IMG/VR virus record: IMGVR_UViG_3300027131_000001
Origin: a virus
Reading direction: 5' to 3' (one strand)
Length of the DNA stretch: 64,000 nt
Of the stretch, positions 1 to 61,657 are shown one piece after another (within the stretch, counting starts at the first letter, position 1; each line of letters starts with the position of its first letter). The position numbers and the translations under genes are program-made. Below the pieces are notes generated by a model, which made no database searches, had not been told where the DNA came from, and saw only the letters and a program-made list of their open reading frames with translations.

Positions 1-57
1 GGTAATTTCAAAACCAAAACGCATATCTTGTGCTGCTGGAGTAGACCATTGTTTCAT
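1..57 (-). CDS. pqqA: PQQ precursor peptide PqqA (3' end runs off the window)
   Basis: Not in the ORF track. Minus-strand translation from ATG at 57 gives MKQWSTPAAQDMRFGFEIT..., matching the PqqA pattern W-x-x-P-x(4)-(L/M)R-x-GFE-(V/I)-T-x-Y. A GAGG RBS lies upstream; the Tyr of the ExxxY core would fall just outside the window. Confidence 0.88.
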   Translation of the reverse strand, partial: MKQWSTPAAQDMRFGFEIT

Positions 58-94
58 ATTATTTCCTCGAAAGCCGTTGCAAAAGTGCAACTGT

Positions 95-124
95 ATTATA
101 TATTACACAACTGGTCTGGTTCAA
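95..124 (-). promoter_or_regulatory. sigma70-type promoter for pqqA
   Basis: TTGAAC-N18-TATAAT on the minus strand, followed by a 5'UTR hairpin GTTGCA...TGCAAC. Confidence 0.55.
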
Positions 125-162
125 CTAGCGATTATCATTGATCTTCGTGCTGGTAATTATTC

Positions 163-428
163 ATGGTAGGTTATTCTGTTACGAGGAAACCTACCGAAAC
201 CCTAAGCAGTGTTTAGGCTGCTAATGCGAACTGTTCGTCGTTTGCGTTTACGTTTTTTGCTTGATTAACGGTCATCGCCTACCGTGCTGTCCACTTGTTT
301 ACTTGTTGCCCTGTCGAAACCAATTCAGGCCCATCAGAAGTATACTAACACCAATATACTTTTGGTGGACCTGCCGGCATCGAAGCCGGGTCCAGAACAC
401 TTTTCTCTTTGCTTCATACAGCAATAAC
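163..428 (-). ncRNA. ssrA: circularly permuted (two-piece) tmRNA, tag ANDEQFALAA
   Basis: The 3' acceptor piece (T-arm CCGGC-TTCGAT-GCCGG then CAGGTCCACCA ending at 363) precedes the 5' end GGGCCTGAATTGGTTTCGAC (starting at 332). The acceptor stem has the G3:U70 Ala identity pair. The intervening segment 333-362 forms a hairpin. Tag frame 245..213: GCA AAC GAC GAA CAG TTC GCA TTA GCA GCC TAA. Outer ends are approximate. Confidence 0.95.
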
Positions 429-431
429 TAA

Positions 432-438
432 TATTTAG
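432..438 (-). promoter_or_regulatory. T4-like late promoter (CTAAATA) upstream of tmRNA
   Basis: CTAAATA variant of TATAAATA a few nt before the acceptor piece. Confidence 0.5.
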
Positions 439-842
439 TCTGTTGCAATCTCAATATGACCAATTTTAATTATACCGTCCCAATCACGACCCTGGTCACT
501 ACGACCACCTGAGCAAACAAACGGAGTATCGAACTCGTGAATATGTCCACCATCAAGTGTGTTCAGATCGAGTATATTAATATCCGATACCAAGATACAT
601 CCAATTAAACCAGCATCTACGCCGTATTCGTTTTCAGCTTCGTCGTGGTAGCTACCATCACCCCACTTAGTATTGAATGATACGAACTTACGTCCGTCCT
701 TCAATTCAAATAGGCCTTCGTTGCATCCGTGATCGTCACGGTCTTTGAAGAAGAGGCCGCACACCTCGTCCCATTCTTCATGCATCACATAGCACAAATC
801 ACCAACCCAATACTTACCAGCAGGCAACCAATCTGTAATCAT
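435..842 (-). CDS. hypothetical phage protein
   Basis: 135-aa ORF with AAGGA RBS; motifs YWVGDLCYV and GVDAGLIG. Confidence 0.7.
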   Translation of the reverse strand: MITDWLPAGKYWVGDLCYVMHEEWDEVCGLFFKDRDDHGCNEGLFELKDGRKFVSFNTKWGDGSYHDEAENEYGVDAGLIGCILVSDINILDLNTLDGGHIHEFDTPFVCSGGRSDQGRDWDGIIKIGHIEIATD

Positions 843-853
843 AATATATCCTT

Positions 854-881
854 AAAAGAAGGGAGCGGCTTTCGCCGCCCC
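854..881 (-). terminator. intrinsic terminator
   Basis: GGGGCGGC-GAAA-GCCGCTCC hairpin followed by CTTCTTTT. Confidence 0.8.
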
Positions 882-887
882 GGTTGA

Positions 888-1865
888 TCAAGCCACCTCA
901 GCCATTTCGACTGCAGTTTCAAGGGCTTTCACTTTCAACGCTTTGTTCGGACCGTACCAAGCAGAAGCCAAACGACCTTCTTGAGTACGACCAAGGTGAT
1001 GGTCAGTTAAGTAAGTCACAGCATTGAATGCAGACCACCATGAACCCTCAGCATACTTGGCTCCTGGTTGTGTTTCAAGAGCCATCATAGCCAGAGTTGC
1101 AGATTGTGACATCTCTTTCTTAACTTTCGTATCTTCATTCTTAGAACGACCGTAGGCATTAACAGGAAAGATACGGTTAAAGTAGTCCTTAACTGACTCT
1201 TCCTTGAACTTCTTGGAACCCAAAAACTTAGCCATCTCTTTATACTTGGCTAGTTTATCAGATGCAATACCTAAAGTCTCTTTGACAGAGTCGCCGTTGA
1301 AAGTAGTACGGTGTGATACTTTAACACCGTTGTTAGCCTTAACAGACAACGAAAGTGTCAATGTGTTGTTGCATACCACACGAATAGGTGTAAAGCGTAC
1401 ATCGATCGATTGACCAAACTTGTGTGGAAGAGTAAACAGCAAATAGCTATCAACAACATCACCACCAAACAACTCAAACGATTCTTTCACCTTAGCAAGA
1501 GCCCATACAATCTGACCATCGCGAAGAGATCCAGCAGTATGCATTGCCATGTCACCAGATACTACGAAATCGTTAAAGAACTCAAAAGCATCATGATTCT
1601 GCAACGGATTCCAGTCTTTAGATACAACATCAAGAATTGAGTTGTCTGAGCTACGAACTAGCGCATCTTTGCCAGTGTAGATTTGCTTGCCATCAATCTT
1701 GGCAAAAGTAGGGATCTTTTCCACAGTCCAGTCAAGGTCTGCAGCTTCCAACATCTGAGCAGGAGAGAGATCAGCAGGAACTGCCTTACCGAGACCGTGC
1801 CAAGGAGTTTCACCAGAGTAGGCCATGCTTGCTTTACCGTTTATAACTTCAACTAAGTGAGACAT
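888..1865 (-). CDS. DUF932-family phage/plasmid protein
   Basis: PWHGLG, AGSLRDG, TPIRVVCNNTL and WSAFNAVT motifs. Confidence 0.85.
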   Translation of the reverse strand: MSHLVEVINGKASMAYSGETPWHGLGKAVPADLSPAQMLEAADLDWTVEKIPTFAKIDGKQIYTGKDALVRSSDNSILDVVSKDWNPLQNHDAFEFFNDFVVSGDMAMHTAGSLRDGQIVWALAKVKESFELFGGDVVDSYLLFTLPHKFGQSIDVRFTPIRVVCNNTLTLSLSVKANNGVKVSHRTTFNGDSVKETLGIASDKLAKYKEMAKFLGSKKFKEESVKDYFNRIFPVNAYGRSKNEDTKVKKEMSQSATLAMMALETQPGAKYAEGSWWSAFNAVTYLTDHHLGRTQEGRLASAWYGPNKALKVKALETAVEMAEVA

Positions 1866-1910
1866 TTTTCATTTCCTTTAAAAAGAGGGTTTCAACTAAC
1901 TAACACCTCT

Positions 1911-1939
1911 ATTATATACCTCAAATCGTTTGAAGTCAA
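1911..1939 (-). promoter_or_regulatory. sigma70 early promoter
   Basis: TTGACT-N17-TATAAT directly upstream of the DUF932 gene. Confidence 0.8.
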
Positions 1940-1971
1940 CAGGCAGTTTAAAACCCGCAAATTCGGGGGTT

Positions 1972-2535
1972 TTAAAAGTCCAACTTGAGCTCAGATTCTG
2001 CAATTTTGCCCATTGAGAACAAAATTAACTGGTTGGTCAAGCTAAAATTGCCGAGATGGAGAATTGGAATACCTCCAGCAGCACCCCATTCATCAATGTT
2101 ACTTGGCTTATCATCAATTAAAATGTCGCCTGGACGTGCCCAGTGTTGTTTATCTTTGCTGTATGGGCCAAAATTGACAACTGTTTCAGGGAAATACTTG
2201 TTGATCCAGTCGATTTTATCTTGTTTTGCAGAAGGCATTGTCGTTTGACGCGGAATTGCCGACAAAAACTCGACATTTACCTCTGATTCGAAGCTTTTGC
2301 ACAGCTCAACCATCTCAACAGAACTCTCAATCAATGGTAGTTGAGTATACAAATTAGGGATATTAGACAAAATATCCCATTCTTTGGCGTTCAAATCGTG
2401 TTGATCCCATCCAATTTGGCGACCAAGTAAGTTTGAAACGTATAAATTGAAGTCAGCAACAACCCCGTCCATATCAATATAGATTGTTCTACGTTTTTTG
2501 GTCAAACTCTTCTTTAATTCTTGAATATGCTTCAT
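1972..2535 (-). CDS. 5'(3')-deoxyribonucleotidase (NT5C-like HAD)
   Basis: IYIDMDGVVADF motif I and ILIDD motif IV. Confidence 0.85.
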   Translation of the reverse strand: MKHIQELKKSLTKKRRTIYIDMDGVVADFNLYVSNLLGRQIGWDQHDLNAKEWDILSNIPNLYTQLPLIESSVEMVELCKSFESEVNVEFLSAIPRQTTMPSAKQDKIDWINKYFPETVVNFGPYSKDKQHWARPGDILIDDKPSNIDEWGAAGGIPILHLGNFSLTNQLILFSMGKIAESELKLDF

Positions 2536-2680
2536 CTAAATTTTCACTTGCTTTAGTTATTTCCAGACATCTAGCAACAACAAACTCGCCAAACTTGTCA
2601 TAGGCCCTGTCATTAGGCGGAAATAGCTGGACTGGATGAGTTACTGCCTTCAATGCTAGTTCCGCAAATCTTTTTTTCAT
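2489..2680 (-). CDS. small phage protein, KFAELI-x-x-EC family
   Basis: DKFGEFVVARC resembles 7927..8268 and 8776..9189. Confidence 0.55.
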   Translation of the reverse strand: MKKRFAELALKAVTHPVQLFPPNDRAYDKFGEFVVARCLEITKASENLDEAYSRIKEEFDQKT

Positions 2681-2876
2681 GCTTGACCCTTACTTTTTTA
2701 GGACGAGAAAGAAATTCATTAACAAATTCTTTGCGCGCAAATTCCATTGCTATTTCTTCTGGAAAACCGGGATACCTGGAATTAGGATCCCTTGTCTTAT
2801 CTAGCATCCATTTATTATAGTGGTCCATCTTTCGCTGAATAAATGCACGGTCTTTAATCATCACGATTACCTTCAA
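2613..2876 (-). CDS. hypothetical protein with HYNxW...YPGFPE domain
   Basis: Shares its N-terminal motif with 10432..10863. Confidence 0.6.
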   Translation of the reverse strand: MKVIVMIKDRAFIQRKMDHYNKWMLDKTRDPNSRYPGFPEEIAMEFARKEFVNEFLSRPKKVRVKHEKKICGTSIEGSNSSSPAISA

Positions 2877-3069
2877 ATAAGAATGTCAAGAGTTTTTGTT
2901 CTGCTTCTTCGTATGAGTCAGCAAGGACTTGAGCAACGACAACATTACCAGTTATTTCCAAGTCAAACGGTATCTTACCATTAAATTGAATAGGTTCATA
3001 CAGCTCAACAACAACCTCGTGGTAGGTTAGTTGTTTAATTCTGTTAATGATGTCAGCTATATCACTCAT
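2854..3069 (-). CDS. hypothetical protein
   Basis: ORF overlapping its neighbours' start/stop codons. Confidence 0.6.
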   Translation of the reverse strand: MSDIADIINRIKQLTYHEVVVELYEPIQFNGKIPFDLEITGNVVVAQVLADSYEEAEQKLLTFLFEGNRDD

Positions 3070-26816: not shown

Positions 26817-26891
26817 TGGTAGCGGGGAGTGGAGTCGCACCACTGACCTCGGGATTATGAGCCCCACGCTCTTCTACTGAGCTACCCCGCA
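26817..26891 (-). tRNA. tRNA-Met(CAU), initiator-like
   Basis: TGCGGGG TAGCTCAGTAGAAGAGCG TGGGG CT CAT AA TCCCG AGGTC AGTGG TGCGACT CCACT CCCCGCT ACCA; unpaired 1:72 and encoded CCA. Confidence 0.88.
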
Positions 26892-34166: not shown

Positions 34167-34859
34167 TTATTTAGATATGAATTCTGACGCCATTGGAAAT
34201 ATTTCCGAGATTGCTTTTGCACAAGCACGTGCTACTTCCATATGCTCTTTTTGTGTTCCATTACTGCTTCTCAATTCAATGTAATGTATCCATGATCTAA
34301 TAGTTCCGTTCATATAAAGGCGTGAAACCGTCATTCCTTCCGGTAAAACTGCTCTTGCCTGCTCTTTTGCTATCCCGTTATCGATCGCCCATTGATACGC
34401 TTCTTTAACAGCGTATAACACGCGTTGCTGAGCACGAATCCATCCCGTATCAAGATTGCGTGAATCAGGATTATCAAGTACCAGCTCTATGCTATTTTGT
34501 CTATTTGATGTGTCTTGGATTCTACATTCTCGTATAACAAACGCATTGTCGAGCTCAGCCGTTGGGTCAGCGTAACGTTGGGAAAATTCCTGAAAAGAAA
34601 AGCTGCGATGTCGAAGGATTTGTCTTGCGATATCTCTTGTAGTTGTGATTTCGATACAGGCGGAGGCCATTTCGAACGGACTCCAGTGCTTGTGCTTTGC
34701 AAGATATCTAATGAGTCGTTCTGACGTTTCATTATTTGATTGATTGTTTGGGTTTGATACCCTTGCGCAGTAGCTGATGAGATCTTGTACATCTTTACAG
34801 TATACCTCTTCTTCTGTTGAAATAGCCGGCTTAGAATAACTTATCAACTTCACTTCCAT
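34167..34859 (-). CDS. thyX: flavin-dependent thymidylate synthase
   Basis: HWSPFE, RHRSFSFQEFSQRY and EQARAVLP. Confidence 0.95.
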   Translation of the reverse strand: MEVKLISYSKPAISTEEEVYCKDVQDLISYCARVSNPNNQSNNETSERLIRYLAKHKHWSPFEMASACIEITTTRDIARQILRHRSFSFQEFSQRYADPTAELDNAFVIRECRIQDTSNRQNSIELVLDNPDSRNLDTGWIRAQQRVLYAVKEAYQWAIDNGIAKEQARAVLPEGMTVSRLYMNGTIRSWIHYIELRSSNGTQKEHMEVARACAKAISEIFPMASEFISK

Positions 34860-35113
34860 ACATCTTCTTTCCATTTTTCTGTTTGTTCAAATCTTTGCTC
34901 CTGAATTGTTTTTTCATTCCAAACTTTTCTAGGATTAGCACACATGAAGCATTTCGGGTCACCACAAGAGATGACACTTCGTTTAAGGAGCTTATGTGGC
35001 TCTTTACACGGGATACTGAATGCTTTAGAGAGCTTTACTTGCTTCTTTATCTTGTTTTCTTTTTGCTGGATACGTTCTTGGTGTTTGCTTTTGTCATTTA
35101 ACATTTCTTCCAT
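34850..35113 (-). CDS. small Cys/His-rich hypothetical protein
   Basis: H...CGDPKCFMCANPRK. Confidence 0.6.
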   Translation of the reverse strand: MEEMLNDKSKHQERIQQKENKIKKQVKLSKAFSIPCKEPHKLLKRSVISCGDPKCFMCANPRKVWNEKTIQEQRFEQTEKWKEDVWK

Positions 35114-60884: not shown

Positions 60885-60914
60885 ATTTATACATCATCCA
60901 CTAAAGGTAGTCAA
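60884..60914 (-). promoter_or_regulatory. composite early/late promoter for hsp20
   Basis: TTGACT-N17-TATAAATA. Confidence 0.7.
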
Positions 60915-61657
60915 CTTTTTATTGATTCAAAGTGTAAATTTGCAACAATAAATTCTTTAACTAGATTACTTCTGACAATATCTTCAACATCAAATTCAAT
61001 GTTTCTGAATGATGGCATTCTGTTAATGATCTGTACAAAGTCCTTTAGTCCAGATTGATCATGCTTTTTATTAAGGTCTGTTTGCTTGAAGTCGCCACAG
61101 AACAGAATTCTAGAACCCTCACCTACTCTGGTAATGATTGAGCTCAGTTCTTGGAAGTTCATGTTCTGACATTCATCAACAATAATAATTGCTTTGTCAA
61201 TTGTAATGCCGCGAACAAAAGATGTGATCAAGAATTCGATATTCTTTTGTTCAACTAGTCTTTCATACGCCTGATCAGTATTAAACAGGTCTTTGCATAT
61301 TGCTTTATAGGGTGCGAGATAAACGTCTGTCTTTTCTTTCTCGTCTCCAGGTAGGTGTCCAATCTCTCTAGACGGTACTACTGAGCGAACAATAACAACC
61401 TTTTCAAAATTGCTACGGTTATTCATCATATCTTCTAGTGCTTTATAGACCGAGATAAATGTTTTTCCTGTACCTGCTGCTCCGTGCAGCATTAATGCTT
61501 GATGTCCTTCATCATATAATTCGTAAAACTTTCTTTGGTTTCTAGTTAGAGGGTCAAATAATTGTAAGTCTTCGTATTTTAATTTCAGCTTCCTTCTGTT
61601 AGATTGATCTGGGAATGGGTGAACGGATGCTTGGGACACTCTAGCCTGTTTTCTCAT
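60911..61657 (-). CDS. phoH: PhoH-family ATPase
   Basis: GAAGTGKT, RSVVP, GHLPG, RGIT, DECQN, TRVG and GDFKQ. Confidence 0.93.
   Translation of the reverse strand: MRKQARVSQASVHPFPDQSNRRKLKLKYEDLQLFDPLTRNQRKFYELYDEGHQALMLHGAAGTGKTFISVYKALEDMMNNRSNFEKVVIVRSVVPSREIGHLPGDEKEKTDVYLAPYKAICKDLFNTDQAYERLVEQKNIEFLITSFVRGITIDKAIIIVDECQNMNFQELSSIITRVGEGSRILFCGDFKQTDLNKKHDQSGLKDFVQIINRMPSFRNIEFDVEDIVRSNLVKEFIVANLHFESIKS

Follow-up and report, generated by a model that had tools for sequence, protein, structure and literature searches.

Why would a phage carry the gene for the one consumable peptide of a cofactor pathway, and is the short reading frame that raises this question truly the gene it resembles? 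PqqA is the ribosomal precursor of PQQ; it is bound by PqqD, its Glu is cross-linked to its Tyr by PqqE, and one peptide gives rise to one PQQ (work referenced in PMC7678222 and PMC9851590). The reading frame lies at the very edge of the window, which is the whole stretch of 64,000 nucleotides analysed here, from the viral record IMGVR_UViG_3300027131_000001. A first-pass annotation had read it as an overlooked phage pqqA with its own promoter, supplying the substrate of a host pathway.

Identity of the reading frame

The frame opens on the minus strand with ATG at 57-55 and runs for 19 codons, from Met1 to Thr19, to the window edge; the codon of Glu17 occupies 9-7 on the same strand, and the positions of the Tyr and of the stop codon fall outside the window, beyond position 1. 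The gene and the elements preceding it are the following, with L011 designating the closest related viral contig carrying the gene.

1 to 57, minus strand: first 19 codons of pqqA (translation, PF08042, TIGR02107, codon-level conservation over 21 phage copies)
65 to 68, minus strand: Shine-Dalgarno-like GAGG, 7 nt before the ATG (AGGA/GGAG at equal distance in relatives)
76 to 91, minus strand: perfect 6-bp inverted repeat with a 4-nt loop, beginning 3 nt past the -10-like hexamer (folds, relatives)
95 to 124, minus strand: sigma-70-type promoter-like pair TTGAAC, 18-nt spacer, TATAAT (10 of 12 matches; kept in L011)

The first-pass annotation had its coordinates right throughout, and start codon, GAGG, hairpin and promoter-like pair are all present. 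Even in its truncated form the peptide passes the cut-offs of both curated profiles, with 26.9 bits against Pfam PF08042 (cut-off 21.1, E 4.7e-6) and 23.6 bits against NCBIfam TIGR02107 (cut-off 20), the latter being an equivalog model. The query consisted of the 19 codons and one preceding codon, to reach the 20-residue minimum, and only 16-17 of the 19-21 profile positions are located inside the window with the last two to five outside. The identification as PqqA, for which a profile search had been proposed as a check, is thereby borne out, and bacterial PqqA peptides that are nearly identical support it as well. The window peptide has the leader Trp, Pro, Arg and Gly that are invariant in 21 phage copies; this conserved leader, with Trp, Pro and Arg at fixed intervals before the core, is the region assigned to PqqD binding. 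Equally, when all six frames of the 64-kb window were searched with a profile derived from relatives, pqqA at 57..1 was the single match. At the level of sequence, 57..1 on the minus strand is confirmed as the 5' part of a genuine pqqA gene. The exact 57-base pattern found no match in the viral contig or metagenome contig collections, and megablast against GenBank phages found none either.

Phage genome context and orphan status

The window encodes the T4-type inventory of RNase H, family B DNA polymerase, DnaB-like helicase, ribonucleotide reductase, ThyX and PhoH as well as a RecA-family recombinase of the T4 UvsX type, and its DNA polymerase is about 50% identical to Kyanoviridae polymerases. 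By this gene content pqqA lies inside a bona fide phage genome, that of an uncultured T4-like freshwater phage. A tRNA-Met(CAT) gene (26817-26891), the ThyX gene (34167-34874) and the PhoH gene (60911-61657), all on the minus strand, commonly accompany one another in T4-like aquatic phages.

None of the 30 larger window open reading frames scanned encodes a PQQ enzyme. Five relatives carry one pqqA each, and none of the five encodes PqqB, PqqC, PqqD, PqqE or a PQQ-dependent alcohol dehydrogenase; the pqqC search had been validated on bacterial genomes as a positive control. Since one of these five relatives, 162 kb long and with terminal repeats, was judged 100% complete, the earlier remark that pqqB-E do not accompany the gene holds for the 30 larger window frames and for a complete relative alike. 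The scanned sequences show pqqA as an orphan, and with no other PQQ enzyme in the phage it must rely on host enzymes.

Phage homologues and selection on the peptide

Relatives were retrieved through the neighbouring gene for a 325-residue DUF932 protein (888-1865), which gave 80 viral contigs, 14 of them with a complete pqqA of 23-25 codons. Together with copies from cultured Methylophilales phages and from one spring virus, 20 complete phage copies were assembled, or 21 copies including the window. All 20 complete copies, that of L011 included, possess Glu-x-x-x-Tyr and a stop codon four codons past the Tyr. The expectation that a Tyr follows four residues after the Glu and that the frame does not continue as a long one thus holds in the relatives, the Tyr and stop of the window copy itself being located outside the window. 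On TIGR02107, scores of 32-40 bits were obtained for eight full-length phage homologues.

Of the close relatives listed, L011 alone has the same insert at the same junction, and its neighbouring gene is 97% identical. Its pqqA is a 25-codon frame (L011:3088-3165) with Glu-x-x-x-Tyr and stop, which shows two differences to the 19 residues of the window. The best metagenome relatives of the neighbouring gene are just 89% identical, and the insert occurs in none of them.

Codon usage over the 21 phage copies is informative with respect to selection. Eleven residues, Trp, Pro, Ala, Arg, Phe, Gly, Phe, Glu, Thr, Met and Tyr, are invariant, and amino acid variation is limited to leader positions and the tail. 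Those invariant residues that are able to vary in codon are, with the exception of Glu, encoded by 2-4 synonymous codons each. Between the window and L011 there are five synonymous codon differences, including a full switch between the Arg codon families, and two non-synonymous ones, both in the variable leader. As synonymous variety at invariant residues indicates purifying selection on the translated peptide, the alignment of copies shows pqqA to be conserved under such selection. Furthermore, the gene occurs in unrelated lineages, namely one T4-like phage of the Kyanoviridae, one phage of the Zobellviridae and several small Caudoviricetes (35-43 kb) that are unclassified.

Signals flanking pqqA

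Judged by the window alone, neither the promoter-like pair nor the small hairpin exceeds chance: the promoter search returned 9 sites in 3 kb versus 6.0 +/- 2.7 in shuffles, and the hairpin has a z of -1.4. It is recurrence in relatives, and not the window match alone, that supports both elements. L011 keeps both hexamers, with one base changed in the first, and the 18-nt spacing, whereas the spacer sequence has diverged; it equally keeps the small hairpin with a G-U change. A hairpin of different sequence is present at the equivalent place in 13 of 13 copies of the phage group folded, the window included, and the hairpins between the -10-like element and the Shine-Dalgarno sequence in the other copies of the group comprise 5 to 9 bp of unrelated sequence. 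When the 48 nt upstream of 19 copies were folded, the mean z was -1.64 versus shuffles, with copies that are not all independent. A consensus of the 5' regions by MAFFT and RNAalifold yielded no structure, since both sequence and register vary among the hairpins, and consensus folding was replaced by per-sequence folds against shuffles. The best-conserved upstream block in 13 aligned phage copies is the Shine-Dalgarno sequence, AGGA/GGAG.

The repeat at 76..91 is likely a 5'-terminal mRNA hairpin. On the other hand, the usual distance from the -10 element would place the transcription start at or just inside the 5' arm of the hairpin, so that the repeat could instead be a DNA palindrome serving as an operator. 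On the 3' side of the phage pqqA copies lies an intrinsic terminator, the tmRNA gene itself or a hairpin module of the tmRNA type. Taken with the upstream elements, these predicted signals show phage pqqA as an autonomous unit.

Bacterial PqqA peptides and the host

Bacterial PqqA peptides were sought with a degenerate DNA pattern for the core, biased to the Ile-Thr subtype, which gave at least 120 matches; those listed are almost entirely from Burkholderiales in the broad sense. Among the matches listed, at least 119 bacterial PqqA peptides were recovered whole, all with the leader Trp, Pro, Arg and Gly, with a conserved Arg preceding the nine residues fixed by the pattern, and all ending 3 or 4 residues past Tyr-Ile, in Arg or Lys. 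Again among the matches listed, most bacterial peptides share the C-terminal tail of the phage copies of the Ile-Thr subtype and one is identical to the phage peptide of contigs L015 and L016, while the closest cores, with 14 of 16 residues, belong to five freshwater MAGs (four Comamonadaceae-type, one Burkholderiales), all of which carry pqqC.

The cultured Methylophilales phages are all of the Val-Thr subtype with a different tail, whereas the window has an Ile-Thr core. This comparison of peptides suggests a phage peptide that follows the PqqA of its host, and a host outside the cultured Methylophilales types. The GC content of the window, 39.6% versus a median of 64% for the bacterial loci sampled, is far below that of most of the sampled bacteria and argues against most of them as hosts. 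A two-piece tmRNA shared with bacteria of similar PqqA was also considered and rejected, as RF01850 stayed below its cut-off in 10 of 10 bacterial genomes tested, which were those with the most similar or typical PqqA.

The insert beside the tmRNA gene

Directly upstream of pqqA the window encodes a tmRNA of the betaproteobacterial Rfam type RF01850, placed by ARAGORN as a two-piece gene at 122-454 with a 10-residue tag ending in Ala-Leu-Ala-Ala. The features of this region are as follows.

151 to 472, minus strand: two-piece (circularly permuted) tmRNA gene (Rfam RF01850 146.9 bits, cut-off 84; RF04321 141.1 bits)
165 to 195, minus strand: 8-bp hairpin module after the tmRNA tag stop codon (folds and alignment; second copy in L011)
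1 to 164, minus strand: visible part of an approximately 190-bp pqqA insert, left junction directly behind the tmRNA 3' hairpin

In nine siblings (contigs L003-L009, L012 and L050) the junction is clean and lacks the insert, the tmRNA hairpin being followed by a short conserved spacer and then by the next gene. In the window and in L011, an insert of about 190 bp starts exactly at that junction. The L011 insert consists, in order, of the promoter-like pair, the small hairpin, the Shine-Dalgarno sequence, pqqA and a second hairpin of the tmRNA type, after which the same spacer and the next gene resume. This second copy behind the pqqA stop (L011:3175-3212) differs from the first in two stem pairs, both compensatory double changes. 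The two L011 hairpin copies bracket the pqqA insert and could act in termination or in processing, or be a target at which the cassette recombines. As the insert is missing from nine of the close siblings listed, pqqA is dispensable.

A pairing of tmRNA and pqqA had been proposed as something to look for in related phages. It was found to be frequent in the phage group, with a tmRNA call within about 1.1 kb in 11 of the 15 sequences with pqqA (10 of 14 contigs plus the window), but neither obligatory nor fixed in order. The tmRNA gene precedes pqqA in the window and L011, and pqqA precedes the tmRNA gene in the other paired sequences, sometimes abutting it: in L015, L016, L017, L020 and L021, the tmRNA gene starts right at or shortly after the end of pqqA. 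Most tmRNA-bearing relatives have no pqqA nearby, and the pqqA of phage Melnitz is located 14 nt upstream of a tRNA-Leu gene, far from the Melnitz tmRNA. An Rfam E-value scan of positions 1-3000 gave tmRNA families only, with no counterpart of the glutamine riboswitch reported next to the tmRNA of Melnitz.

Some further observations concern the same region. The stretch between a 135-residue open reading frame (window 435-842) and the tmRNA is hypervariable, with inserts of 1.2 to 4 kb in siblings, as at L011:1385-2668 and in L008, L009, L010, L012, L003, L006, L007 and L050, and with none in the window; the insert of L011 in this stretch contains a tRNA-Arg(CCG). In L004 (IMGVR_UViG_3300020042_009649, 4026 bp) the first 124 bases recur at the contig end, within the tmRNA region, which could reflect either a wrap-around in the assembly or a genuine repeat at the tmRNA. 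ARAGORN reports a second, one-piece tmRNA at L017:1392-1908, overlapping pqqA and the two-piece tmRNA, which is probably spurious.

Proposed role and alternative explanations

The reading that most probably accounts for the locus is that of an intact, stand-alone phage pqqA with a mini transcription unit of its own, the peptide of which is given to the host machinery to sustain PQQ. The unit would comprise an early-type sigma-70-like promoter, a 5' hairpin, a Shine-Dalgarno sequence, approximately 25 codons and a 3' hairpin; the small hairpin, at the transcript's 5' end or close to it, would probably stabilise the RNA. The phage peptide would be passed to host PqqD and PqqE, and subsequently PqqB, PqqC and peptidases would convert it one-for-one into PQQ; host pqqB-E and a host PQQ enzyme are assumed. 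A T4-like infection would be expected to shut off transcription in the host, upon which the supply of the short-lived, consumable precursor would be lost while the stable host enzymes would persist. As PqqA is consumed, a strongly expressed phage pqqA would then restore the precursor, keep PQQ flowing and keep periplasmic PQQ-dependent dehydrogenases loaded, and the dehydrogenases so sustained would feed the energy supply for phage production. The timing of expression, the use of the peptide by host enzymes and the benefit to the phage are in this sense what we infer. PQQ being a catalytic cofactor, the need for new PQQ within one infection cycle is not obvious.

Instead of serving the infection, pqqA might be passenger DNA, a recently captured scrap of host DNA that was picked up with or beside small RNA genes. 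Such a capture would fit the presence/absence polymorphism among near-identical siblings and the position in a hyperplastic region beside host-like RNA genes, but is improbable given the codon pattern of purifying selection over 21 copies, the promoter, Shine-Dalgarno sequence and terminator that phage copies possess of their own, and the single pqqA kept by each of several unrelated phage lineages.

Even less probable is a function as decoy or regulator, in which the peptide or its mRNA would titrate host PqqD/PqqE or lead the tmRNA precursor without yielding PQQ. Strict retention of Glu, Tyr and the whole core is required neither by a decoy nor by a leader. One precursor RNA could be shared in the five contigs in which pqqA abuts the tmRNA gene; in the window, however, the order is reversed and the promoter-like pair separates tmRNA and pqqA.

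That pqqA is the first gene of a phage-specific RiPP-like cassette, with downstream phage proteins rather than host PqqB-E modifying the peptide, is the least credible of the explanations, as the downstream gene directly follows the tmRNA in nine siblings without pqqA, the pqqA of other relatives has different neighbours or sits upstream of the tmRNA, and the peptide is indistinguishable from bacterial PqqA among the matches listed.

Supply of the precursor to host enzymes leaves room for a further, tentative proposition on how the gene travels. Phage pqqA may be a small mobile expression cassette instead of a fixed gene, running from the promoter and the 5' hairpin through pqqA to a duplicate of the hairpin at the 3' end of the tmRNA. 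It might integrate at the hairpin that ends phage tmRNA or tRNA genes and duplicate this hairpin in doing so, with its peptide subtype tracking the PqqA of the host. If this is true, the Ile-Thr core with a Burkholderiales-type tail would mark the phage of a freshwater betaproteobacterium outside the cultured Methylophilales, viral manipulation of PQQ would extend beyond obligate methylotrophs and the peptide would be a marker for host prediction.

Known systems and overlooked annotation

The novelty implied by the first-pass annotation has to be withdrawn, as phage pqqA is already known and the idea was published in 2020: viral PqqA of Lake Baikal methylotroph phages has been read as a PQQ-boosting auxiliary metabolic gene (Coutinho et al. 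2020, Microbiome 8:163, PMC7678222). The window shares with the Baikal phages a pqqA precursor gene in a freshwater phage and the same interpretation; the Baikal record also carries a peptide deformylase, and the Baikal representatives encode a methanol dehydrogenase (PMC7678222), of which there is none in the scanned window frames or in the five relatives. A reservoir study of 2026 equally lists viral pqqA, pqqD and pqqE.

Stand-alone pqqA genes are also found in bacterial chromosomes. A methanol-utilising PQQ production strain has five pqqA copies, three of them stand-alone, with expression that tracks PQQ synthesis (PMC9851590), and stand-alone copies in Methylovorus sp. MP688 are attributed there to Ge et al. 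2015. The window copy resembles these methylotroph copies in being detached from pqqB-E (the methylotroph copies are transcribed alone; PMC9851590); they are chromosomal, whereas the window copy is phage-borne. With bacterial PqqA in general (PF08042/TIGR02107, Burkholderiales in the broad sense) it has in common the length class, Trp/Pro/Arg and the Phe-Gly-Phe-Glu-Ile-Thr core; in contrast to the bacterial genes sampled, which stand beside pqqB-C, the phage copy is an orphan and has a promoter and hairpins to itself.

Similar in organisation are Melnitz, Venkman, P19250A, MEP301 and MEP401/402, each with a tiny orphan pqqA that has its own Shine-Dalgarno sequence and flanking hairpins and was missed by annotation. 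The cultured Methylophilales phages differ from the window in core (Val-Thr versus Ile-Thr) and tail subtype, and the Melnitz gene adjoins a tRNA-Leu, not a tmRNA. The suspicion that gene callers overlook such short genes proved justified: pqqA is unannotated in five phages (Melnitz, Venkman, P19250A, MEP301 and MEP402), and the GenBank records of Melnitz-1 and of the uncultured Manatee Spring virus have a gene call on the wrong strand over it. In Melnitz-1 the intact pqqA (L083:2992-3069, MZ577095.1 about 74876-74953) is crossed by an opposite-strand hypothetical protein with a locus tag ending in _151, and the Melnitz paper does not mention pqqA. For work with Melnitz, OM43 was grown in a medium with 1 nM PQQ (PMC9004378), which could hide a phenotype of the phage pqqA in this system.

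The new details are modest, namely a peptide subtype of Burkholderiales type, a clean insertion with duplication of the tmRNA hairpin, as in L011, and the recurrent 5' hairpin. The locus adds one more example to an under-annotated class, that of phages carrying only the consumable peptide substrate of a host cofactor pathway, and the subtype of the peptide may carry host information. Furthermore, the clean presence/absence polymorphism among siblings offers natural isogenic pairs for testing the benefit of pqqA.

Two matches to 'Acinetobacter phage MD-2021a' were set aside, as their full pqqABCDE operon with ppk is most likely bacterial DNA. The 144-kb record L245 of this name (CAKLQF020000010.1), with pqqABCDE next to ppk and a 5'-nucleotidase gene, looks like bacterial chromosome.
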